A stretch of DNA of 64,000 nucleotides, from contig CBDANF010000003.1 in the NCBI GenBank assembly GCA_965197475.1, positions 2,496,001 to 2,560,000 on the forward strand, given 5' to 3'. The position numbers and the translations under genes are program-made. Source of the stretch: Candidatus Poribacteria bacterium (lineage in GTDB: Bacteria > Poribacteria > WGA-4E > WGA-3G). The notes beneath the pieces are model-generated. The model was not told the origin of the DNA. It did not search any database and saw only the letters and a list, made by a program, of their open reading frames with translations. This document shows positions 4,397 through 31,774 of this stretch, in pieces. How positions within the stretch are numbered: the stretch's first letter is position 1; every line of letters starts with the position of its first letter.

Positions 4397-5355
4397 TTTT
4401 TACCTCCTAGTCCTTTATAAATAATGTTAAGAACAAGTGTGCCCACAATCTCCAAACTTTTCGGACTACATTTGTCCACTGTATCTTCAAGCGTATGCCA
4501 GTGCGGATAATCAAAATCAATAATATTAACCATCGGTATGCCAGCTTTGATTAACGGAACATGGTCATCCATGACTGCGGGACCTAATTTGCGTTGAAAT
4601 GGGGCTAAACCGAGGTTTTCCGCCTGCTTCCAGATGGCATCCGCAAATTCGCGGTTTGCCACCCAAGAGTATCGTTCTATTGGTATCTGTAAATCCTTAT
4701 CGCCGATCATATCCAAAAGAATGCCGTAGTCGGGTTCCCATTTTCCCATGTTTTTTGCGAAGTAGCGGGACCCCATGAACATTTGGTCGGTTGTTTTTCC
4801 ATAATCCTCGCCATCAAACAAAATAATAATAATTCGTTTCGGTGGTGGTGTTTCCTTTAATATCCTTGCGATTTCAAGTAAAACTGCCACACCTGAGGCA
4901 CCATCATTCGCTCCAACAATAGGCTCACGCTGATTTTCCTGATTCGGGTCTTTATCAGCACAAGGGCGCGTGTCCCAATGTGCTGCGAGAAGAAGTGTTT
5001 CACTATGACTACTGCCGAATTCAGCGATGATGTTGTTCATGTGCAGCGTTTTGCGTTGCGGTGGAACAGTATTCGTATCTACATCATAAGTGTAGGGTTG
5101 AAGCGTCACAGTATCAGCATATTTCTTGAGTTCGGTGAAAAGATAGTCCCTTGTTTTCCGATGTGCTTCTGAATCCGGAGGGCGCGGTCCGAATTCACAC
5201 TGCTTTTTCAATATTTCAAAGGCACGGTTGCTGTCAAAGGACAAAAATGCTTTTCGCGATGGTGAGTTCGTTGGCTCCGCACACGCCCAAGTGAATATTC
5301 CACAACATAGGGCTAAAACGAGAACGATCAATTGTATGATTTTCATTGACAGCAC
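4393..5355 (-). CDS. M28 family peptidase / glutaminyl cyclase-like protein
   Basis: AHWDTR, GANDGASG, FDGED, LLDMIG, DDHVP and HWHTLED motifs; signal peptide. Confidence 0.9.
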   Translation of the reverse strand: MLSMKIIQLIVLVLALCCGIFTWACAEPTNSPSRKAFLSFDSNRAFEILKKQCEFGPRPPDSEAHRKTRDYLFTELKKYADTVTLQPYTYDVDTNTVPPQRKTLHMNNIIAEFGSSHSETLLLAAHWDTRPCADKDPNQENQREPIVGANDGASGVAVLLEIARILKETPPPKRIIIILFDGEDYGKTTDQMFMGSRYFAKNMGKWEPDYGILLDMIGDKDLQIPIERYSWVANREFADAIWKQAENLGLAPFQRKLGPAVMDDHVPLIKAGIPMVNIIDFDYPHWHTLEDTVDKCSPKSLEIVGTLVLNIIYKGLGGKK

Positions 5356-5495
5356 GCCTATTATTATTATTAAAAGTAAATATGGAAATCAGAGAGATCA
5401 ATTTAAAATTGAATACTTTCAATCTATCTCACCTGACTTCCTATTTTAACAGATTTGTTTTATATTGTAAAGCCTATTATTGCCTAAAGACTACA

Positions 5496-5643
5496 GCCTA
5501 TCTCATAAATCGTTAAACACGGTTCCGTTCAGAGAATCCAACTTCATCGTAGGGGCGGGTCTCTGTGCCTGCCCGTTGTTTCCGTTCTCAAGACATGGCG
5601 AGGCACAGAGACCTCGCCCTACAAATGATTTATGAGATACGCC
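5496..5643. repeat. MITE-like element with a nested REP-like inverted pair
   Basis: TATCTCATAAATC / GATTTATGAGATA ends; internal GTAGGGGCGGGTCTCTGTGCC...GGCACAGAGACCTCGCCCTAC. Confidence 0.65.
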
Positions 5644-5755
5644 CTATACACTGCGCCTACTTTAGTATAATGTAAGAGGCGCGTGAATTGCGCGACTACA
5701 ACGCTACAATGCTAAAAATAGATGTATTGGTCTTTAGATTTACTATAAGGTATGC

Positions 5756-6355
5756 TTACACTGCGCGCCTACCTTCTAAAGCTTTCGCGAGGGTCACTTG
5801 GTCAATATATTCTAAATCTCCTCCAATAGGAATACCGTAGGCGATTCGGGTGACGCTTACCTGAAACTGTTCAAGTTGCTGCGTAAGGTAAAGTGCTGTT
5901 GCCTGTCCTTCTGTGTCCCAGTTGGTAGCGAGGATAACCTCTTTGACAGTGCCATTGTGGACTCGGTTAAAGAGAGTCTTTATTCGTAGAGAATCTGGAC
6001 CGACCCCATCTAATGGTGACAAAACGCCTCCGAGAACATGATAAAGCCCTTTATAGCTTTCAGTTCGTTCAATCGCCCATAGATCGTCGGGTTGTTCAAC
6101 AACACAGATTTCCTGTTGGTCGCGCCTCGGATTTGAGCATATCTGACACGGGTTAATGTCGGTGATAGTACCACATATCTTGCAATCTGACAAGTTTTTT
6201 TTAACTTCCAAGATTGCTTCTGCGATTTGGTTGGTCTCCATGTCCGGTAGTGTTAGCATAAAAAAAGCTAAACGTTGCGCGGTTTTGGGACCAACTGTCG
6301 GAAGTTTTTGGAGCTGCATGATGAGCCTCTCCAACGGTTGCGGGTAGCCTTGCAT
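5756..6355 (-). CDS. recR: Recombination mediator RecR
   Basis: LPTVGPKTAQRLAF, C4 zinc finger, YHVLGG TOPRIM motif. Confidence 0.97.
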   Translation of the reverse strand: MQGYPQPLERLIMQLQKLPTVGPKTAQRLAFFMLTLPDMETNQIAEAILEVKKNLSDCKICGTITDINPCQICSNPRRDQQEICVVEQPDDLWAIERTESYKGLYHVLGGVLSPLDGVGPDSLRIKTLFNRVHNGTVKEVILATNWDTEGQATALYLTQQLEQFQVSVTRIAYGIPIGGDLEYIDQVTLAKALEGRRAV

Positions 6356-8682: not shown

Positions 8683-8954
8683 TGGCTATGCACCCAGAGT
8701 TGACAAGCCTTTCCGGGCGTTGCCCATGTCGTTGGCTCAAGCCAGGCTACCTTGCGTCACACGAGAAAACTTATCTGCCGCTGCTTCTTTCCAGACCTGA
8801 CGGGGTTCAACAAGCTCTCGTTGCTCAAGACCTAGCTATCAACGCTACGTGCATGGGACAGTCCCCACAAAGACAGGCCGCATACTGGGAATTCCGTTCT
8901 GCTATAGCGGATTGCAGATACAGGGCACCGCTACCTCCCCACCTAGCATAGCCA
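8683..8954 (-). ncRNA. ffs: Large (Alu-domain-containing) signal recognition particle RNA
   Basis: About 272 nt with complementary ends; Alu 5' sequence GGGGAGGTAGCGGTGCCCTGTA; S-domain TCAGGTCTGGAAAGAAGCAGC; upstream of dnaX. Confidence 0.92.
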
Positions 8955-9041
8955 AGCCGTTAAAGTTGTTCATCAAATGTGAAATATGCTGGTCGGGATA
9001 CGATCAGTTGCCGCGTAAAAAACCGACCTTACTCCTAAAAA

Positions 9042-9133
9042 TGGCGGAGAGAGTGGGATTCGAACCCACGGTACTGCAAAACAGCACACATGATTTCCAG
9101 TCATGCCAGTTCAACCAACTCCTGCATCTCTCC
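9042..9133 (-). tRNA. tRNA-Ser(GGA)
   Basis: Cloverleaf with long variable arm, anticodon arm CATGA-CTGGAAA-TCATG, encoded CCA. Confidence 0.95.
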
Positions 9134-9151
9134 GATAAGTATAGTAAAAAG

Positions 9152-9224
9152 TGGAGCAGACGGGATTCGAACCCGTGACCTCATCCGTGCGAGGGATGCG
9201 CTCTCCCAACTGAGCTACTGCCCC
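9152..9224 (-). tRNA. tRNA-Ala(CGC)
   Basis: GGGGCAG/CTGCTCC acceptor stem with G3-U70; CATCC-CTCGCAC-GGATG anticodon arm. Confidence 0.95.
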
Positions 9225-9291
9225 AAGAAAATCATAAAAAGTTAAAAGTGTAGCAAGCACCCGGAGCGTCACATAATATTCAATCAAAAAA

Positions 9292-9376
9292 CGGAGAGAG
9301 TGGGATTCGAACCCACGGTGACTTGCGCCACAACAGTTTTCGAGACTGTCCAGTTCAACCGCTCCTGCATCTCTCC
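9292..9376 (-). tRNA. tRNA-Ser(CGA)
   Basis: ACAGT-CTCGAAA-ACTGT anticodon arm, long variable arm. Confidence 0.95.
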
Positions 9377-9495
9377 CTATTGTGTATGGTTATCGGTTTT
9401 TAGTAATCATTGATGTGCGCGATTGTTCTCGTAATGGTATGTTCTTTTAGTTGTAATAATGTTGTTAGATTAGTCCTTCTCTGTAAATTTTGGAT

Positions 9496-9915
9496 TTATA
9501 ATCTTGGTGGTTCTCCATATCTGTTTTTATAGGGGGACCCTCTAAAAAATCCGCACACGATAAGCAGGTATAAACTACCAACACAAGGAACAAGTCCCCA
9601 TAAAATATTCAACCCAGATCGGTCTGTGTCATGTAAACGTTTGATAACTATAACTATATCAGTATAAATAGTTATAAGACCGGGCGATACGAAAAGAATA
9701 GCTAAAACAGAATCTGGATCATCAGGGTCTCTTCCTACTGCAGTATAAATAAAAGCTACAAGAATATAAAAGAGAATAACCCCTATGGCATACATCCAAT
9801 ACTGAAAACGATTAATTCTACCCTTAAAAGAGAAAAGAAAACTTAACATTTCATTTCCAAATAATATTCTTATTTGAATTTTCGTTGTGCTTTTTGTTCT
9901 TCGCGTTCCTTGCAT
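9496..9915 (-). CDS. DUF805 family membrane protein
   Basis: FSFKGRINRFQYW, KRLHD and NRYGEPP motifs; AT-rich; true start probably the later Met (MLSFLF). Confidence 0.85.
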   Translation of the reverse strand: MQGTRRTKSTTKIQIRILFGNEMLSFLFSFKGRINRFQYWMYAIGVILFYILVAFIYTAVGRDPDDPDSVLAILFVSPGLITIYTDIVIVIKRLHDTDRSGLNILWGLVPCVGSLYLLIVCGFFRGSPYKNRYGEPPRL

Positions 9916-9979
9916 TCATACCCAACCAACTAACAAATCCTACCACTCTCTATACACAATACAGCCAAGAATAACATCA

Positions 9980-10492
9980 TTAACGACGGTTCTTAAAAAA
10001 TGATTTCAATAATGCGCTACTCTCTTCTGAACAGACACCGCTTACCAATTCCACTTGGTGATTCAATCGCTCGTCTCGAACAATATTATAGAGTGTTCCA
10101 GCTGCGCCTGCTTTTGGATCAACGGTAGCATAAACAACCTTCGGAATACGCGCCAGAACTATTGCCCCAGCACACATTGGGCACGGTTCCAAAGTTACAT
10201 ATAAGGTTGTATTCGTCAAACGCCAGTTGCCAAGTTTTTGCGATGCTTCTTGTATCACCAGCATTTCGGCGTGTGCAATTGGATTTCCAGATTGTTCCCG
10301 TATATTATAGGCAGCAGCTACACAAGTATTGTCTTTAACAATTATAGCACCAACAGGCACTTCGTCCTTTTCCCCTGCTTGTCGCGCTAATTCGAGTGCT
10401 TGCTTCATCCAGAAAACATCACTGTCCAAAATTTGACCAATAGGGACAGTATTTGAAACCGCTTTTAATTTTTCTGACTCTTGAGTGCTCAC
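9980..10492 (-). CDS. tadA: tRNA adenosine(34) deaminase
   Basis: EVPVGA, HAE and TLEPCPMC motifs; directly downstream of tRNA-Arg(ACG). Confidence 0.95.
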   Translation of the reverse strand: MSTQESEKLKAVSNTVPIGQILDSDVFWMKQALELARQAGEKDEVPVGAIIVKDNTCVAAAYNIREQSGNPIAHAEMLVIQEASQKLGNWRLTNTTLYVTLEPCPMCAGAIVLARIPKVVYATVDPKAGAAGTLYNIVRDERLNHQVELVSGVCSEESSALLKSFFKNRR

Positions 10493-10515
10493 AAGACATG
10501 CCCCAAGATTCTAAA

Positions 10516-10589
10516 AGCGCCTGAGAGGATTCGAACCCCCGGCCTTCTGATCCGTAGTCAGATGCTCTAATCCACTGAGCTACAGGCGC
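10516..10589 (-). tRNA. tRNA-Arg(ACG)
   Basis: TCTGA-CTACGGA-TCAGA anticodon arm; GCGCCTG/CAGGCGC acceptor stem. Confidence 0.95.
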
Positions 10590-10727
10590 ATCTTTCACCA
10601 ACACATGGCGATCAAAATATGATTTAGTTAGGTTTTACTACGTTCAACTCAACCGACAAACTTAACACACGTTATACAGCACACAACACCGATTCAGATG
10701 GTGTGTAGGTGATTATAAGTTGAAAAA

Positions 10728-10812
10728 CGGAGAGGGTGGGATTCGAACCCACGATGGCTTTCGCCATAACTGCTTAGCAGGCAGTCCAGTTCAACCACTC
10801 CTGCACCTCTCC
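10728..10812 (-). tRNA. tRNA-Ser(GCT)
   Basis: ACTGC-CTGCTAA-GCAGT anticodon arm, long variable arm. Confidence 0.95.
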
Positions 10813-10824
10813 AGACTTTAAATT

Positions 10825-10912
10825 TGGCGGTGGGAGTAGGATTCGAACCCACGGTGACTTGCGCCACAACGGTTTTCAAGACCGCCGCTTTCGTCCACTC
10901 AGCCATCCCACC
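10825..10912 (-). tRNA. tRNA-Ser(TGA)
   Basis: GCGGT-CTTGAAA-ACCGT anticodon arm, long variable arm, encoded CCA. Confidence 0.95.
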
Positions 10913-23254: not shown

Positions 23255-23340
23255 AAACGCAACATTAAAACGATTTTATATTTGCCCACGGCTTTCTACC
23301 CAGATAAGTGGTGGGAACAGCACAAAAGGAGTACAAACCG

Positions 23341-24627
23341 ATGAAAAACACGTTGTGTTCAATTTTGACAGCACTGTTGATAGTACTCATATTTACACCT
23401 AACAGTTTCACCCAAGATTCACTGCAAGAGGATATAGAGGACTTAATTGAATCAGTACGAAAGGAGTTAGAGGATGCAATACAAGAGAGTTTACGTGATG
23501 ACGAGAAAACGGGCAAGGTCAACAAACTTGTTTATTCTACCGACGATATAAATTTTTCCCACGATGGCAAACGCCTCGCGTTAGCGGGGAACTACGGCAT
23601 TTTGATCTACGACATTCAGAGAAGTCGCAAAAACGTTCAGGTAAGTTACAAACCTATCAAATTGAGGGAACATCAGGGGAGAGGGTGGCGGGTAGCGTTT
23701 AGTCCGGATGGTAAGCTACTCGCAAGTGCAAATGCTACAGGTTTGCTTTATATATGGGATGCGAAAACGGAAAAACTCCTTCGGACAATCGAAGAAGAGC
23801 CAAAATATTCATCTTTCTGGTGTATGGCGTTTAGTCCGGATGGCAGGATGATCGTTACCGGGGGGAATAGGGTTATCACTACGGATCCTTGGAGAAGTGA
23901 GGGCATAGTGCGTTTGTGGGATACACAGACGGGAGAACACATCCGAACACTCACAGGGCATAAGCGTCATGTCCATAGCGTGGCGTTTAGTCCGGACGGC
24001 AGGACTATCGCGACGGGTGGTAGCATAGCTTTCGCTAAGGATGGCAGTACGATAGATGGCGTAGTGCGTTTGTGGGACACACGGATGGGAGAACACATCC
24101 GAACACTCACAGGGCATAGAGGTATTATCAATTCCGTGGCGTTTAGTCCGGACGGAACGCTACTCGCAAGTGGCGGTATTGACAAACCCGTCCGCTTATG
24201 GGATGTGAAAACGGGGCAACAAATCCGAACACTCGGAGAGGGTGGTCCAGGGTATTCTGCGGGTCCGAGAGATCTGGAAGGAGGAGGATTTATAGGTTCT
24301 TTCGGTCCGGTTGATTGCGTAGCGTTTAGTTCAGATGGCAGGACTCTCGCAAGTTCCAATTCTGTAGGTGTTTGGCTATGGGATGTAAAACGGGGACGAC
24401 TCCTCCGAAGATTCAGAGACCAAAACTCAGGCGGTGGTCCTACTGTAGTGGCGTTTAGTCCAGATAGCAGGACTCTCGCAGTCTGTAGAAGTTATGAACT
24501 TGAGCAAATAGTTCCCAAAAGCAATGGCGTTACAATTCCTAAAGAAATAGAACTGTGGGATGCGGAAACGGGAAAACATCTCCATAGGATCAAGTTAGAA
24601 AGGTACAGACTCGAAACTTACCCATGA
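23341..24627 (+). CDS. Secreted WD40-repeat protein
   Basis: Repeated GH...VAFSPDG...VRLWD; signal peptide from ATG 23341 with an AAGGAG RBS. Confidence 0.92.
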   Translation: MKNTLCSILTALLIVLIFTPNSFTQDSLQEDIEDLIESVRKELEDAIQESLRDDEKTGKVNKLVYSTDDINFSHDGKRLALAGNYGILIYDIQRSRKNVQVSYKPIKLREHQGRGWRVAFSPDGKLLASANATGLLYIWDAKTEKLLRTIEEEPKYSSFWCMAFSPDGRMIVTGGNRVITTDPWRSEGIVRLWDTQTGEHIRTLTGHKRHVHSVAFSPDGRTIATGGSIAFAKDGSTIDGVVRLWDTRMGEHIRTLTGHRGIINSVAFSPDGTLLASGGIDKPVRLWDVKTGQQIRTLGEGGPGYSAGPRDLEGGGFIGSFGPVDCVAFSSDGRTLASSNSVGVWLWDVKRGRLLRRFRDQNSGGGPTVVAFSPDSRTLAVCRSYELEQIVPKSNGVTIPKEIELWDAETGKHLHRIKLERYRLETYP

Positions 24628-25802
24628 AAAATAGATTGTTTTCAATTTTGATAGCACTGTTGATAGTATTTACATTTACATTTAACAACCTCGCCCAAGA
24701 TTTACTACGAGAGGCATTAGAGAATGCAAAACGAGAGAATTTACGTGATGGCGAGAAAATGCGCAAGAGCGGCAGCAAGCACTACATCAATGATATGAAA
24801 TATTCCCCTGATGGCACACGTCTCGTGATGGCGGGGAGCTTCGGTATTTTGCTCTACGATGTTCAGAGAAGTGGCAAAAATATTCAGAAAGTTGATAACC
24901 CTGTCAAATTGGCAGGACATCAGGAGAGAGGCTGGCGGGTAGCGTTTAGTCCGGATGGCAAGATACTCACAACTCTCGGTGGTATGGGATCTTTTCGTTT
25001 GTGGGATGCGAAAACGGGACAACACATCCGAACACTCAAAAGGGATCCAGGGACATCGAACTCGTGTGTGGTGTTTAGTCCGGGTGGCAGGATGATCGTT
25101 ACCGGGGGGAACAGGTTTGTCACTAAGGATGGTAAGAGAATGGAGGGCATAGTGCGTTTGTGGGACACACACACGGGACAACACATCCGAACACTCATAG
25201 GGCATAAGCGTCATGTCCAGAGCGTGGCGTTTAGTCCGGACAGCAGGACTATCGCGACAGGTGGTACAGGTAGCATAACTGGCGCTAAGGATGGCAGTAC
25301 GATAGATGGCGTAGTGCGTTTGTGGGACACACACACGGGAGAACACATCCGAACACTCACAGGGCATAGAGGTATTATCAATTCCGTGGCGTTTAGTCCG
25401 GACGGAACGCTGCTCGCAAGTGGCGGTTATGACAAACCCGTCCGCTTATGGGATGTGAAAACGGGGCAACAAATCCGAACACTTGAAGAGGGTGGTGGGA
25501 GGTATTCTATGGGGCCGAGGGATCGGGGAGGAACGCGAAGCCCTATGGGTCCGGTCGATTGCGTTGCGTTTAGTCCAGATGGCAGGACTCTCGCAAGTTC
25601 CAATCATTTGGGCGTTCGTCTATGGGATGTGAAGACGGGACGACTCCTCCGAAAATTCAGAGAACGGAACGGTGGTCATGGCATTACTTTGGTAGTGTAT
25701 AGTCCGGATGGTAGGACGATCGCAGCTTGTGCTAGCAATGAAGTCGATCTGTGGGATGCGGAAACGGGACAACTCCTCCAAAGACTCAAAATGCCCGATT
25801 AA
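24624..25802 (+). CDS. Secreted WD40-repeat protein (tandem paralog)
   Basis: Same repeats; ATGA overlap with the upstream paralog. Confidence 0.92.
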   Translation: MKNRLFSILIALLIVFTFTFNNLAQDLLREALENAKRENLRDGEKMRKSGSKHYINDMKYSPDGTRLVMAGSFGILLYDVQRSGKNIQKVDNPVKLAGHQERGWRVAFSPDGKILTTLGGMGSFRLWDAKTGQHIRTLKRDPGTSNSCVVFSPGGRMIVTGGNRFVTKDGKRMEGIVRLWDTHTGQHIRTLIGHKRHVQSVAFSPDSRTIATGGTGSITGAKDGSTIDGVVRLWDTHTGEHIRTLTGHRGIINSVAFSPDGTLLASGGYDKPVRLWDVKTGQQIRTLEEGGGRYSMGPRDRGGTRSPMGPVDCVAFSPDGRTLASSNHLGVRLWDVKTGRLLRKFRERNGGHGITLVVYSPDGRTIAACASNEVDLWDAETGQLLQRLKMPD

Positions 25803-25879
25803 CGGATTTATCCTATTTTCCAATCTATAGGCGCGGTTTCTAACCACATCTATGATTGGAATCAAGTTAACTTGGTGTA

Positions 25880-25971
25880 ATACCATATTAACTTGATCTT
25901 TCTCGGTAGGCGTGCTTTGTCCGCGCGCTGTCTGCCCAGAAAAATAAGACTAATCCTGTTAATTTGGTGTA
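25880..25971. mobile_element. About 90-bp MITE (inverted homolog at 48549-48640)
   Basis: TACCATATTAAC...GTTAATTTGGTGTA ends; internal sequence aligns with 48549-48640. Confidence 0.7.
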
Positions 25972-26020
25972 AGTGTTAATTGATGGGAAAGTATACCCGA
26001 AAAACATTAGATAGATTGTA

Positions 26021-28060
26021 ATGCCAAACAGATTTGTCCGTAGCATCGCGTCTCTATTTCTTCTCGGAAGCATTCTGCTGCTTTGCTGTTGGATCCGCGT
26101 TCAAGGCACCGAACGGATCCCGCAAGGGCAATTCACTGAAAATGATGCCTACTTCTACTATTGGCAAGCCACCCTAATTTCAGAACAGGGACATCTACCG
26201 GGGCGCGATATGCACCGGTGGTTGCCGCTCGGTAGAGATTTAGGGCAGACGCTCAATGTTTATCCCTATGCCCTCGCTTATACACACAAAGTCGTCTCCA
26301 CAGTTTTTCCGAACGTCACGCTTTACCACGTTATCCTTTACATGCCTATCTTATGTTTTGGCATTGGACTCGGCGCGCTCTGTCTCTTTCTTTATCACAC
26401 TTACGGACTTCTCTTTTCAAGTATAGTAGGCGTACTTCTGGCGATACTTCCGGGTAGTATAGAGCGCAGCACAGCCGGATTTGGAGACAGAGACGCATGG
26501 TGTCTAATGGTAGGCGTTCTTACTGTCGTAACGTATCTTTTCTCCTTGCAGGTACAAGATAAACGTTTCCGACTTTTGTGGACGATTATCAGCGGTTTTA
26601 TTACCTTCTTAGGAGGCATGAGTTGGGAGGGTTTCGGTGTTTTTCTCAGCGTTATTTTTGTTGTGGAACTCTGGCGTTTTCTCACCAATGAAAAAGAAGA
26701 AGACCTCTTGTACTATCTGTTTTGGATGCTCACCTTTGTGCCGATGCTCTGGCTTGCCTCACCCGCCTATCGCAGTGGTTACGGTTTTTCACAACACATT
26801 GCTGTCTTTGTACTTGTACCGCCAGTGGTAATCCTACTACTCCGCAGCTGCCGACATCTTTTCTTGAACCATACCCCTTTTGCTGAAAAACTCCGTCCAC
26901 ATGGGCGTTCGCTTGCACTCGGCTTAACGCTCTTGAGTCTTACACTTGCAAGTCGGCTATGTTCTGACACAGCTTAGCACGTTCGCGAGTACTACCGTGC
27001 CGTTGAGTGATAACAGCTTGATGCAAGCAATGACAGAGTTGAGATCCCCGCCTTACCGGTATTGGGTCGCTATGGCAGCGTCTTTATTATAGGGAGTCTC
27101 GGTTTCGTTCTCATTCCCCTCCATCTCTGGAAGAAACAAGGATTTCTCTTATCAATACCTATTGCGCTCTTTACAGTCTTTTCCTTTTTCCGGCAACAAG
27201 GTGATAACCTCTGGGGGGAACCCTTTGGTAACGTCCTTTTTGGAATTGCTCTCGCGGGGTGTGTGGTCACCCTCATCGGAATCGCATGGCGGCGCAAGAC
27301 TCAAGCCCCATCAGAACTCGTTTTTATTGCTTTCACTGCATGGTTTATTGTCTGGGTTGCGCTCTCTCGTGATGCGAAACGCTACGACTTTTTCATCGGT
27401 TTAGCCCTCGCCTTCGGGACCGCAGCCTTGATATTATTGATTGCACAGACACTCAGTGAGAGATTGAGAAGTTCTGTATATGTCAGTGACAGATTTCGAA
27501 AAGACTTTGAAGCGAACACACTAAAAACAGGAATCGCCATCATACTCCTCATAACAATAATGTGGCTGCCAACAAAAATCGCACATACGCATCGGACGTT
27601 ATATGCAGCGAAAGAGATGCGAAACCCACTACCCGGAAACAACCGTGTCAATGCAGCATTCCAATGGATGAAAAAATATCTTGTTCCCAAAGCAAAAGAG
27701 ACCCCTATTGTTGCTGCACATTGGGGGTACGGTAGCCAACTCAACGTTCTCGCCGGTGTTAGAACCATCACGGACCAGGATACCTACATACCACATTGGG
27801 TACATCTCTATTACAAGCATGTCCACAACACAACGGCGGAACGGGAAGCACTCAGCTACCTAAAAACACACGGTGCAACGCATATTATGCTCACCGGAAA
27901 AGATCCGAGAAAATCTTTTCTCCGCAGACAGTTAAGCGATGCATTTGTCCCTATTTATCCATTCGCCACAAAATTTGAAAAATCGGGGGTGAAAATATGG
28001 AAGATTCACTATCCGGGTAACATTCAGCCAGATCCGAAATACCGAGTGACCAAGTTTTAA
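26021..28060 (+). pseudogene. STT3/AglB-PglB-like oligosaccharyltransferase (GT-C fold) with two frameshifts
   Basis: ENDAYFY, RSTAGFGDRD, AMTEL (in the bridging frame), KRY and AAHWGYGSQL (WWDYG-like) motifs; frameshifts near 26950 and 27065. Confidence 0.8.
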
Positions 28061-28700: not shown

Positions 28701-28905
28701 AATTACACTAAATTCCATCAGGGATAACGTTATACTCAAACCAACACCGCGTACCATCGGTTTTTAGCGTAATCGCACCGCGTTGATCCGTTCGTAGCTG
28801 CACACAATTACGTTCCCGATACCGTGCCACCACATCCGCATGCGGGAATTGATACCGATTCCCTTTGCCGAGAGAAAAGATAGCATAACGCGGCTGCACA
28901 GCATC
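28601..28905. repeat. Inverted duplicate of 51174-51478 (comEC 3' end plus CDP-alcohol transferase 3' end)
   Basis: ORF 28708..28899(-) is identical to the ComEC C-terminus; about 4 transitions counted by eye over ~305 bp. Confidence 0.92.
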
Positions 28906-30485
28906 GTTCCTGCCGATTTTGAAAAAGCAAAGCAGACAGTGTTACCAGATGCTATTTCCTCAGTTGAAGAGGTGACGACCGACCTTGTGAGTTACCTCCA
29001 AGGTATGACTATCTTTGGTCACCCTCGCACACAACAAAATGTAATTGCGCCGACAACAATTCCGAGTCTAATAGGAGTACTCCTTGCTTCTCTACATAAT
29101 CCTAACCTTTGTTGGGATGAATCCAGTCGATTAGTAGCGTTGGCAGAAGTTGAAGTCGTTGCCATGACATCAAAATTGATCGGATACGATCCGGAACAGT
29201 CAGGTGGTGTGTTTACCTTTGGTGGAACCGGAACGACACTCTACGGAGTGAAAATCGGGTTAGAAAAAGCATGTCCGGAAACGATGCATAAAGGTACACC
29301 AGAAGATGCAGTCGTTTTCGTGTCAGATGCAGGACATTACTGTGCTGCGAATATTACGGGTTGGCTCGGAATAGGCACAAACAATCTGATTACTATTCCG
29401 ACAACTGTTGAAAACGAAATTGACCTTGAATTACTTGAGCAAGAGTTGCAAAAAGCACTCACGAATGGAAAAAAGATTGCCTGTATTATTGCTACATTGG
29501 GTACTACCGATGCATTCGGTTTGGACAATTTACTGCAAATCGTTGCTTTGCGAGAAACCCTTGTTGATGAATTTGAACTTGACTATCAACCGCATATCCA
29601 CGCTGACGCTGTCATCGGATGGGCATGGTTTGTGTTCAATAACTACGATTTTGAGGAGAACCTTTTAGGATTTCGTCCGCGCACCATCCGCGCTTTAGCA
29701 GGTGCCTGCAGAAGGATACAACACCTTTCCCTTGCAGATTCTGTCGGCATTGACTTCCACAAAACTGGCTTCGCGCCTTATATTTCCAGCCTCATACTAG
29801 TCAAAAATCAAGCTGATCTGGATATGTTGAAAAGGTCTCCTGAACAGATGCCCTATCTCTATCACTTTGGACAGTATCGTCCCGGAATGTTCACGCTTGA
29901 AACCTCAAGAGCTGGTACAGGAACTCTTGCTGCCCTTGCTAATCTACGATTGTTCGGGGAAGAAGGGTTGCGCGCTATTCTTGGACACATCGTTGAAATG
30001 ACGCAACTTCTACGAGAACATCTGGGAGGACACGAAGGCACAACCGTCCTGAATCGGGGAAATTTCGGGACTGTTACACTTTTCCGTGCTTATCCAGTCG
30101 GTGTAGATACATTTGAAATCAAACGGCAGGAATTTGAAGATGCTGCTAATCGGGACATTTTAATTGCACACAACGTTTACAATCGCGAAATCTTCCAATA
30201 CGTGAATTCTGAGGCGATGGAAGGTCGGGGTGTTTTCATCTCCACAACAGACTGCTACCGTAAAACCGCTTATGGAGAGCCAATTGTCGCCTTAAAATCG
30301 TTGGCTCATGTAAAGAATGAGTGCTAATGAAAAAGTTTAACCCGCTTGGTCATTGTCTTCATTAAAAACAACCGCACACATTCTTTACATGAGCGAAATC
30401 GTTTATCCTATCCCCGTTTGTTGATGAAGAAGATGTGAAAACAGTGGTTGCGAAGGTATTGGAAGCGAGGGAAGCAATTAGTTGA
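28906..30485 (+). pseudogene. Group II PLP-dependent decarboxylase, 5'-truncated and interrupted by a MITE
   Basis: GGTGTT, HIHADAVIGW, DSVGIDFHK (PLP lysine), TLETSR; native C-terminus FILSPFVDEEDVKTVVAKVLEAREAIS* resumes after the insertion. Confidence 0.85.
30303..30395. mobile_element. 93-bp MITE with 8-bp target-site duplication (ISL3/IS1595-like ends)
   Basis: GGCTCATGTAAAGAATG / CATTCTTTACATGAGCG TIRs; AAATCGTT at 30295-30302 and 30396-30403. Confidence 0.9.
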
Positions 30486-30507
30486 AGTGTTGCAATATAC
30501 ACTTCAA

Positions 30508-30589
30508 TGGAGGTGGTGGGAATTGAACCCACTTCCGGAGGAATTTGAAAGCGACCATGCTTTCGCCTCCGTCGAATCCATTCACCCCC
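30508..30589 (-). ncRNA. Minimal tmRNA-like RNA: tRNA-like domain only, no mRNA-like domain
   Basis: GGGGGTG-AATGGATTCGAC-GGAGG-CGAAAGCATGGTCGCTTTCAAATT-CCTCC-GGAA-GTGGG-TTCAATT-CCCAC-CACCTCC-A; G3-U70, A73, tmRNA-type stemless D-loop. Confidence 0.8.
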
Positions 30590-30618
30590 GTGTACAAATA
30601 TAAATATAAGGATACCAT

Positions 30619-30648
30619 ATTCGCACCCACAATATCAAGTGAATAGCT
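30619..30648 (-). promoter_or_regulatory. Promoter for the TLD-only RNA
   Basis: TTGATA-N18-TATCCT with an extended -10 TG, followed by a short AT-rich leader. Confidence 0.6.
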
Positions 30649-30736
30649 CTGGTCAGACACCAATTTGTTGACTTTGCTAAGTGTCTGTGATAACCTATGT
30701 TTATAATAATCAGATTGGAAGGAATAGTTATAGTTA

Positions 30737-31774
30737 ATGGAACATTGGATTGAACAACTTATTGGTGGATTACCCAACGTAGTCCTTTTTCTAATTATTG
30801 CGGTGATGCTTTATACACTCGGCAAAGGCGCAGACTGGCTTGTTGATGAAGCGGTTGTGCTTTCAACCCGATGGGGTTTAGGGAAAGCGATTATCGGTGC
30901 TACGATTGTGAGTATTGGGACAACAACACCTGAGGCTGCGGTCTCCGTGCTGTCTGCAGTACAAGGAAAACCGGGACTTGCACTCGGAAACGCAGTCGGT
31001 TCGATTATATGTGACACTGGACTTATTTTAGGATTAGCATCGCTGATTGCACCGTTATCGTTCAACCGTCAGTTAGCATCGCGCTTGTCCAATGTTCAGG
31101 TGAGTGCTGGTATTCTCTTGGTATTAGCATGTATTCCGTGGTCTTCCCCTATGGAAGTCTTTAAACAAGGTGGCGTACTTCCACAATTTATAGGATTCAT
31201 CTTTGTTGTACTGTTAGGGTTGTATATCTGGCAGTCTATCCGATGGGCAGGTTCAACAACACCCGATCCTGAAGACGAAGAGAAGGCAGAATCAGGTGGA
31301 TCAAGTACTTCCCTTACACTTCTGAAACTCATCGGGTCAATCGCAATCGTCGTAATTTCTGCCCAAATTCTCATTCCGACTGTAAGTATTCTTGCTACAA
31401 GATTTAAGGTGCCAGAATCAATTATTTCGTTAACATTGGTAGCATTCGGCACTTCACTCCCAGAACTTGTAACAGCAATTACAGCAGTTAGGCGTGGGCA
31501 TGGTGAGTTAGCGGTCGGTAACATCATCGGTGCGGATATTCTGAACGTGCTTTTTGTGGCAGGGGTTTCTGCAGCAGCGACAAGAGGTGGGTTAGTAGCA
31601 GACGCACATTTTTTCCTATTCGCTTTCCCCGCAATGTTGTTTATCTTAATAGTTTTCCGATACGGTATTTTCGTTTCAGGTAGCCAGTTAAAACGTCCTT
31701 TTGGGGTTGTTTTAGTCGCAGTCTGGCTTGTAGTACAAATCCTCAGTGGTGTTTTGGGAATAGGGGTGCGTTAG
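30737..31774 (+). CDS. Cation/Ca2+ (sodium:calcium) antiporter, YrbG-like
   Basis: Alpha repeats GTTTPE...GNAVGS and GTSLPE...GNIIGA. Confidence 0.92.
   Translation: MEHWIEQLIGGLPNVVLFLIIAVMLYTLGKGADWLVDEAVVLSTRWGLGKAIIGATIVSIGTTTPEAAVSVLSAVQGKPGLALGNAVGSIICDTGLILGLASLIAPLSFNRQLASRLSNVQVSAGILLVLACIPWSSPMEVFKQGGVLPQFIGFIFVVLLGLYIWQSIRWAGSTTPDPEDEEKAESGGSSTSLTLLKLIGSIAIVVISAQILIPTVSILATRFKVPESIISLTLVAFGTSLPELVTAITAVRRGHGELAVGNIIGADILNVLFVAGVSAAATRGGLVADAHFFLFAFPAMLFILIVFRYGIFVSGSQLKRPFGVVLVAVWLVVQILSGVLGIGVR

Follow-up and report, generated by a model that had tools for sequence, protein, structure and literature searches.

The window, i.e., the whole 64-kb stretch of DNA that was analysed, carries at 30508..30589 of the minus strand an 82-nt mini-tmRNA gene that comprises only the tRNA-like domain (TLD) of tmRNA; the assignment relies on the sequence, a match to the Rfam model RF00023, the minimum free energy (MFE) fold and the alignment of 24 homologues. 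In the minus-strand reading, G1 of the mature RNA is 30589 and the discriminator A (equivalent to A73) is 30508; CCA is absent from the gene sequence. The gene is surrounded by ordinary metabolic and transport genes: a PLP-dependent decarboxylase (28840..30327, plus strand) is its convergent neighbour and a Na/Ca exchanger family protein (30737..31774, plus strand) is its divergent one, both identified from the gene annotation and from relatives.

The decarboxylase ORF stops at 30327, and a 101-nt insertion (30295-30395) cuts it off from the conserved segment that encodes its C-terminus, which runs on to 30485 in a different frame. In a metatranscriptome contig from a related strain, 30294 is followed immediately by 30396. 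Part of the insert was seen at high depth in other contexts, and it may be a small mobile repeat. Directly 3' of the mini-tmRNA lies a hairpin without a T run (30482..30507, minus strand), which is common to one relative (G003), is absent from most others and overlaps the stop codon of the decarboxylase frame (30483-30485, plus strand). Elsewhere in the window, a large (Bacillus-type) SRP RNA (184.9 bits) adjoins a minus-strand cluster of six tRNA genes (four Ser, Ala and Arg) at 8686-10912. At 23308-26977, two WD40 beta-propeller proteins of 439 and 392 aa are encoded side by side, followed by a protein with an STT3-like oligosaccharyltransferase N-terminal domain; the WD40 and STT3-like proteins are eukaryote-like features.

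Structure and promoter-like site of the mini-tmRNA gene

The RNA is composed, from 5' to 3', of the acceptor 5' strand, a D-loop analogue, helix 2a, a hairpin, a GGAAG junction, the T arm, the acceptor 3' strand and the final A. Its MFE fold (-35.1 kcal/mol, z -3.25; two of 200 shuffles were equally good) consists of a 7-bp acceptor stem with G3:U70, a 6-bp helix 2a, the GAAAGC/GCTTTC hairpin and a 5-bp T arm. The coordinates of these parts all refer to the minus strand. The acceptor 5' strand GGGGGTG (30583..30589, G3 at 30587) is invariant in the 24 sequences save for G1 in one of them, and the 3' strand CACCTCC (30509..30515) provides U70 as the partner of G3. The stemless D-loop analogue AATGGATTCGA (30572..30582), which ends in GGATTCGAC, is aligned by RF00023 to the tmRNA consensus GGaUUCGAC; all of its positions but one were invariant in the first alignment. 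Helix 2a is formed by CGGAGG (30566..30571) and CCTCCG (30536..30541), with compensatory changes in three pairs. It is capped by the hairpin GAAAGC-ATGGTC-GCTTTC (30547..30564; two compensatory pairs), the loop letters T-G-G-T of which were invariant in the first alignment; this hairpin occupies the place of the pseudoknots and the tag ORF in a full tmRNA. In the T arm GTGGG-TTCAATT-CCCAC (30516..30532), a U:A pair is swapped for C:G in three of the 24 sequences.

The first-pass annotation described, at 30508-30648, a stand-alone TLD without a tag ORF, with every helix closed and with its own promoter. Considering the fold, the end-to-end match to the tmRNA model and the promoter-like site, this description is accurate. 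The tmRNA 5' and 3' signatures stand in the normal order; only 41 nt, from GAC to GGTTC, separate the TLD halves, all of them in helices, and the MFE fold coincides exactly with the structure proposed there. As regards the coordinates, the start at 30508 stands; the end has to be corrected, since the range up to 30648 takes in the promoter and the RNA stops at 30589.

The promoter-like site, TTGATA-N18-TATCCT with a TG extension (30609..30638, minus strand), was found in a promoter scan and is conserved in relatives. The scan of the region gave two sites against 1.9 expected by chance, so that the support for the promoter comes from its conservation rather than from the lone site. The upstream alignment can be written as TTGAnA, a spacer of 16-18 nt and (TG)nTAnnnT; a loose -35/-10 pattern matches in 22 of the 24 copies, and the elements are retained in six genomes with a different upstream gene. 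In the two copies that lack this pattern, another transcription unit on the same strand immediately precedes the RNA: a CRISPR array in G013 and an hsdR-ygjP pair in G091. In most copies the -10 element ends 9-14 nt short of G1, and the leader would therefore be only a few nucleotides long. At the sequence level, the proposed own promoter is thus supported by a sigma-70-type promoter-like site that is conserved in most species. An upstream inverted repeat was considered as a specific operator and rejected, since it occurs only where the Na/Ca exchanger gene adjoins; on the plus strand it is the exchanger's own promoter-like site TTGACT-N17-TAACCT.

Sponge metatranscriptome contigs from two runs cover 30396-30591 and 30564-30918 at a depth of about 5. 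Both belong to a related strain and extend past the ends of the RNA, through the promoter region, and for this reason they show neither the small RNA nor its absence; they may represent DNA or read-through. In runs X5 and X9, coverage falls only on other parts of the 64-kb stretch.

Relation to tmRNA and to the host smpB-ssrA pair

The mini-tmRNA scores 66 bits with RF00023 in the whole-window and whole-genome scans, i.e., above the Rfam gathering score of 47 bits, and 45.5 bits, just below it, in the sub-region E-value scan. The alignment spans model positions 1-374, with about 310 internal positions deleted. At both ends the TLD aligns letter for letter with the canonical one-piece tmRNA, and the RNA possesses the G3:U70 acceptor stem, the stemless D loop and the T arm of a tRNA-like domain. 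The difference from canonical tmRNA lies in the missing ~270 nt, i.e., the pseudoknots, the resume codon and the tag ORF; the mini-tmRNA cannot template a tag. In particular, no mRNA-like domain (resume codon, tag ORF and stop) was found in the sequence, in the fold or by ARAGORN, and the RF00023 alignment contains none of the pseudoknots PK1-PK4. The 5' and 3' TLD halves are non-permuted and joined directly, with no CDS, which is the form named "Standard, no CDS".

Several other assignments were considered and rejected. ARAGORN calls neither a tRNA nor a tmRNA at the locus; the RNA is not a tRNA-Ala, as no tRNA is called and a cloverleaf with a D stem and an Ala anticodon arm is absent. (The scan of the source genome, G000, gave three 73-nt cloverleaf-type sequences with G3:U70, two of which ARAGORN named tRNA-Ala.) The mitochondrial tmRNA model (RF02544) has no match in the source genome at E <= 1. 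A protein-coding reading was also discarded: at the 24 loci, the open frames across the RNA range from 29 to 124 codons, i.e., their length is not constant.

The source genome has a complete smpB-ssrA pair on the same contig, 1.8 Mb from the mini-tmRNA. A full ssrA (354 nt, 177.8 bits), for which ARAGORN gives the tag ADQELALAA, sits 32 nt downstream of smpB, the only smpB match in the genome. The mini-tmRNA matches this ssrA exactly in the acceptor stem and at the beginning of helix 2a. The D loop of the mini-tmRNA is shorter, its T stem is GTGGG/CCCAC versus GCGGG/CCCGC, and its junction is GGAAG versus GGAC; these differences suggest an old paralogue and not a fresh deletion copy. The first-pass annotation proposed to look for a full ssrA and smpB elsewhere in the genome, and for a full-length ssrA at this very locus in relatives. 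The former two are present, one smpB followed by an ssrA with a tag ORF, and the relatives carry the same mini-tmRNA at the locus rather than a full ssrA. Assembly collapse or a recent deletion within ssrA is rejected, considering the intact pair and the occurrence of the mini-tmRNA in 22 independent genomes. As for other rescue factors, the domain queries gave no match to an RqcH-type NFACT_N domain in the source genome, which is 92.7% complete, and a single match to the RF-1 domain (the number of matches does not give a copy number), so that no ArfB-like back-up is seen there.

Conservation and loss in Poribacteria

Candidatus Poribacteria are sponge symbionts, and a search of public runs returned sponge metagenome libraries. 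A covariance model built from 11 mini-tmRNA copies (R1) recognizes intact copies, at 90-114 bits, in 22 of the 40 genomes of the genus. Outside the genus, in the 151-genome sample of the order, it finds two copies in one genome of another family (G091) and no intact copy in the other 112 genomes. A 100-nt match in a sister genus (G140, L278:1001-1100) comprises the last ~70 nt of ssrA and a GGGGGAG start; it was rejected as a mini-tmRNA of the Poribacteria type, being an ssrA 3' fragment with an unrelated 5' end. A pattern scan of metagenomes for the Poribacteria type yielded only three stretches.

The same PLP-dependent decarboxylase is convergent to the mini-tmRNA in 20 of the 22 genus genomes, and the same Na/Ca exchanger is divergent from it in 15. 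The decarboxylase is only 82-95% identical among these genomes, and the flanking intergenic DNA is barely alignable; the mean column identity of the mini-tmRNA is 94% (11 copies, first alignment). In the 24-sequence alignment, which was fitted to the model structure and consists of related sequences, standard pairs are found in 99.0% of 597 cells. Six pairs are changed on both sides (22 cells), as against one or two pairs in controls with the partner shifted by 1-3 columns, and the observed covariation score is reached by none of 500 shuffles. G3:U70 and the discriminator A are present in all 24 copies.

Considering that 18 of the 40 genus genomes have no intact copy, the mini-tmRNA is dispensable. 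The decarboxylase is still present in such genomes. A decayed 3' part of the RNA remains at the locus in G042, G005 and G035, none of which has an intact copy (R1 gives 22.5 bits in G042, and the BLAST identity over the last third is 75-78%). In nine further genomes without an intact copy, the match is limited to the C-terminal coding part of the decarboxylase. The near-perfect conservation in 22 species, set against the quick decay elsewhere, indicates a selected gene that was lost several times; it is vertically inherited, at a locus separate from the single smpB-ssrA pair. The earlier view that the element is maintained by selection and is not decaying is upheld by its conservation in 22 of 40 genomes and by the compensatory changes; in particular, both conserved synteny and compensatory stem changes, which were suggested as a check, are found in the relatives.

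Pieces of the 3' end were also observed apart from the intact gene. In the source genome, a truncated copy (G000:C3:32574-32682) contains the last 33 nt of the mini-tmRNA, 100% identical, together with the decarboxylase C-terminal region (92%, 109 nt), and has a sharp breakpoint within helix 2a. In G017, the 3' end of the mini-tmRNA is repeated ~500 nt downstream as a direct repeat, as at tRNA-type integration sites.

We infer with high confidence that 30508-30589 (minus strand) is a functional TLD-only RNA gene. Alternatively, the element could be devoid of any RNA function of its own: either what is left of an ssrA duplicate that lost its interior, or an attachment site or processing signal retained on other grounds. 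The duplicated 3'-end pieces, which follow the tRNA-type integration pattern, and the 18 genomes without an intact copy speak for such a reading. It is nonetheless very improbable, considering that all four helices are kept with compensatory changes, that the 5' half is intact, that a promoter-like site is present and that the RNA decays quickly where it is lost; an attachment site, in addition, needs the 3' part only.

TLD-only RNAs elsewhere and the possible role of the mini-tmRNA

The first-pass annotation knew tmRNAs lacking the mRNA domain from protist mitochondria only, which is an incomplete list: the available parts of PMC4131195 and PMC11915505 add phage DS6A, plastids and perhaps two bacterial groups. 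According to these parts, mycobacteriophage DS6A is classed as "TLD only" (Hudson, Lau and Williams 2014, PMC4131195); a DS6A-like molecule strongly inhibits tmRNA in E. coli, perhaps by titrating SmpB (PMC4131195, PMC11915505), and it does so whether the molecule is chargeable or not (PMC4131195, citing Mao et al. 2009). The 2025 tmRNA database, as presented in the available part of PMC11915505, includes nine "Standard, no CDS" sequences among 97,179; the same source names plastid forms of ~65 bp and DS6A, as well as two bacterial groups in which a tag frame may be missing. Mitochondrial tmRNAs, it states, have no tag frame although SmpB occurs alongside them, and presumably assist with incomplete mRNAs. 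A full-text literature search found TLD-only forms only in the available parts of these two papers, both from the Williams laboratory. It found no paper that links Poribacteria to a tmRNA variant, with the proviso that the nine entries in the supplement of PMC11915505, a source available in part, could include one. It also found nothing on a cellular second-copy TLD-only RNA or on a natural cellular regulator that mimics tmRNA.

Judging by its description in the available part of the source, the DS6A RNA resembles the mini-tmRNA in being non-permuted, in having little beyond the tRNA-like domain and in having no tag frame. Unlike the phage-borne DS6A gene, the mini-tmRNA is chromosomal, syntenic (20/22) and accompanied by a full smpB-ssrA pair, it has its own promoter-like site, and a conserved hairpin of 6 bp closes off its helix 2a. 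The CDS-less tmRNAs of mitochondria (RF02544) and of Mallomonadaceae plastids, as far as the available text describes them, likewise combine a TLD without a tag frame with the co-occurrence of SmpB; however, an organellar RNA of this kind is the sole tmRNA there and is usually permuted, whereas the mini-tmRNA coexists with a full ssrA and is non-permuted. The mini-tmRNA is new in that it is cellular and syntenic, accompanies a complete smpB-ssrA pair, and has its own promoter-like site and a distinct conserved hairpin.

A degenerate pattern, in which the tmRNA 5' and 3' ends lie 18-48 nt apart and U70 is left free, was used in scans of bacterial, archaeal and viral contigs. In bacterial and archaeal contigs (one genome per species) it matched 70 stretches, 21 of which are of the Poribacteria type. 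The remaining ones are scattered and include three in Nostoc (L087, L100, L120), three in Balneolaceae (L096, L130, L146), two in Christensenella (L125, L135), two in one Microvirga (L082, L098), several in actinobacteria, and others. TLD-only tmRNA-like genes are conserved within other bacterial lineages: the three Nostoc copies have promoter-like upstream sequence in common, and the Christensenella copies encode CCA and are located after a tRNA gene.

In viral contigs, the pattern matched at least 120 stretches (L151-L270) with at least 96 distinct TLD-only sequences, mostly of 77-80 nt. Among the matches listed, U is opposite G3 in all 96 distinct viral sequences, the 5-bp T stem is present in 96/96, six or more middle pairs in 89/96 and the GGAC junction in 70/96. 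The viral RNAs share with the mini-tmRNA the 7-bp acceptor with G3:U70, the GGNTTCGAC D-loop analogue, the 5-bp T arm and the single helix that replaces the mRNA domain. Their recurrent design is a 7-9-bp helix with an A-rich bulge and a 3-4-bp hairpin; those among the matches listed mostly have the GGAC junction, the A-rich bulge and the 3-4-bp mini-hairpin, whereas the Poribacteria RNA has GGAAG or GGATG and a 6-bp hairpin. In one viral contig (L260, 7355-7423), a 5' end and junction of the Poribacteria type are combined with a plain 7-bp hairpin. At about ten of the 96 viral loci, among the matches listed, the RNA lies between the portal/prohead-protease and major capsid genes on the same strand. 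BLAST of the 78-nt mini-tmRNA of a Mycobacterium MAG against GenBank phages, which is an insensitive search, returned nothing beyond matches of the T arm to annotated tmRNAs, to one attR and to unannotated stretches. Considering that nine database entries compare with at least 96 distinct viral and dozens of bacterial sequences, the TLD-only class seems, so far as the sequences tell, to be much larger than recorded. The alanine identity pair is strictly kept throughout these RNAs, which suggests that charging, and hence ribosome delivery, matters in nature.

Nearly all bacteria use trans-translation, which is also a drug target. G3:U70 is the determinant for AlaRS, SmpB binds the elbow of the TLD, and the TLD, once alanylated, enters the empty A site together with SmpB and EF-Tu. 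We presume, if with only slightly more confidence than doubt, that the mini-tmRNA acts as an alanine-accepting, SmpB-binding competitor of tmRNA, which would divert stalled ribosomes from tagging. A short precursor would be matured in the manner of a tRNA, with RNase P acting at the 5' end, 3' trimming and CCA addition, and would be charged with alanine by AlaRS. The charged RNA would then be bound by the only SmpB of the cell and by EF-Tu, and would enter the empty A site on a non-stop mRNA in competition with the full-length tmRNA. There it would accept the nascent chain and offer neither a resume codon nor a tag ORF; it could lower tagging because it takes the chain and supplies no template. 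In this way, a share of both the SmpB pool and the stalled ribosomes might be drawn away from ADQELALAA degradation tagging, and the net effect would be either a brake on trans-translation or a tag-less bypass. Inhibition by chargeable and non-chargeable molecules alike, as given in the available part of PMC4131195, fits simple SmpB titration better than ribosome entry. The competitor model leaves the invariant T-G-G-T of the hairpin loop unaccounted for and gives no reason for a cell to keep a brake on its own rescue system.

Up to peptidyl transfer, the competitor model coincides with a reading that differs from it only in the outcome: the alanyl mini-TLD with SmpB would free non-stop ribosomes by adding one or several alanines, and the product would leave via drop-off and peptidyl-tRNA hydrolase, or in a further round, without the ADQELALAA degron. 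Such a rescue was proposed for the CDS-less organelle tmRNAs, with which SmpB co-occurs, and natural two-residue Ala-Ala tags exist (both from the available part of PMC11915505). The strict retention of the alanine identity elements (24/24 here and 96/96 in the phage forms among the matches listed) also agrees with it, as do the missing NFACT_N (RqcH) match and the single RF-1-domain match in the 92.7% complete source genome. However, the cell already has a complete tmRNA, the reading names no release mechanism, and the published TLD-only experiment gave inhibition rather than rescue (PMC4131195, available part). We therefore regard this outcome as unlikely, albeit worth keeping in mind.

Some copies of the mini-tmRNA lie beside defence loci. 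The two copies in G091 (L276:2641-3275 and 4556-6086; L277:3001-5970, which represent both loci) are non-syntenic and are located in defence loci. The first is placed between cas6 and cas1, ~60 nt upstream of a duplicated leader-like segment with two degenerate repeats of the adjoining 21-repeat CRISPR array; the other follows the genes for a type I restriction R subunit and a YgjP-like protein. In G013 (L037:1699-3069), a CRISPR array with 19 repeats, each 37 nt long, ends ~110 nt upstream of the mini-tmRNA on the same strand and stands in place of the usual promoter-like site and exchanger gene. The G013 repeat is related to that of G091; a repeat of this type is absent from the source genome.

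It is tempting to relate these neighbours to a phage-host conflict, in which the mini-tmRNA would be a decoy or guard, kept by the host, for phage or toxin factors aimed at tmRNA, tRNA-Ala or SmpB, or else a phage anti-tmRNA gene that has been domesticated and blocks those phages which depend on trans-translation. The abundance of TLD-only RNAs in viral contigs (at least 120 stretches), the two G091 copies in defence loci, the G013 copy that abuts its CRISPR array, and the SmpB-like domains in predicted RNA-targeting defence systems (PMC11090510, available part) are all in line with this proposal. Nevertheless, defence neighbours accompany only three of the 24 copies, and none were found in the examined flanks of the 21 others, the source copy included. 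In addition, the G013/G091 repeat is absent from the source genome, defence islands are general insertion hot spots, and the acceptor stem identical to that of the host ssrA fits a host origin. For these reasons we consider a role in such a conflict quite unlikely.

On a wider scale, the mini-tmRNA may belong to a broad and almost undescribed class of alanine-accepting mini-tmRNAs that act on SmpB and stalled ribosomes, are abundant in phages, in some cases within the portal-protease-capsid operon, and were adopted independently in Poribacteria, Nostoc, Balneolaceae and Christensenella; we put this forward tentatively, as a possibility that falls somewhat short of probable. If it is true, the gene in Poribacteria would be the first example from a cell that is inherited vertically and coexists with a full tmRNA; it would let the cell switch between handling stalled ribosomes with and without tagging, or shield it in conflicts with phages. 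A host-encoded TLD-only RNA beside smpB-ssrA would show that rescue is tuned by an RNA competitor, or that rescue is split from tagging. The mini-tmRNA would also offer a compact natural substrate for the delivery of a message-less tRNA-like domain by SmpB and EF-Tu.

If the same proposal holds, Poribacteria would also possess another family of reduced RNAs that are tRNA-like and carry alanine identity. These RNAs are ~68 nt long and occur outside the window; one example is L003:1477-1595 (G000:C3:2722673-2722791, minus strand). None of the family members is called by ARAGORN. Each has a 7-bp acceptor stem with G3:U70 (11/11), a 3-bp mini D arm, a T arm and a 5-bp arm with a 7-nt loop of the motif N-T-T-N-N-C-N. 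A leader/trailer helix of 15-17 bp, with T's after it, encloses each RNA, and every copy has a promoter-like site of the TATAAT type to itself. RNAalifold predicted 39 pairs for the family, 15 of them with compensatory changes. A model of this family (R2) finds one to five copies in 19 of 39 genomes of the genus, with five in tandem in G037, and matches in two of 59 genomes of a sister genus; the neighbour genes vary from copy to copy.
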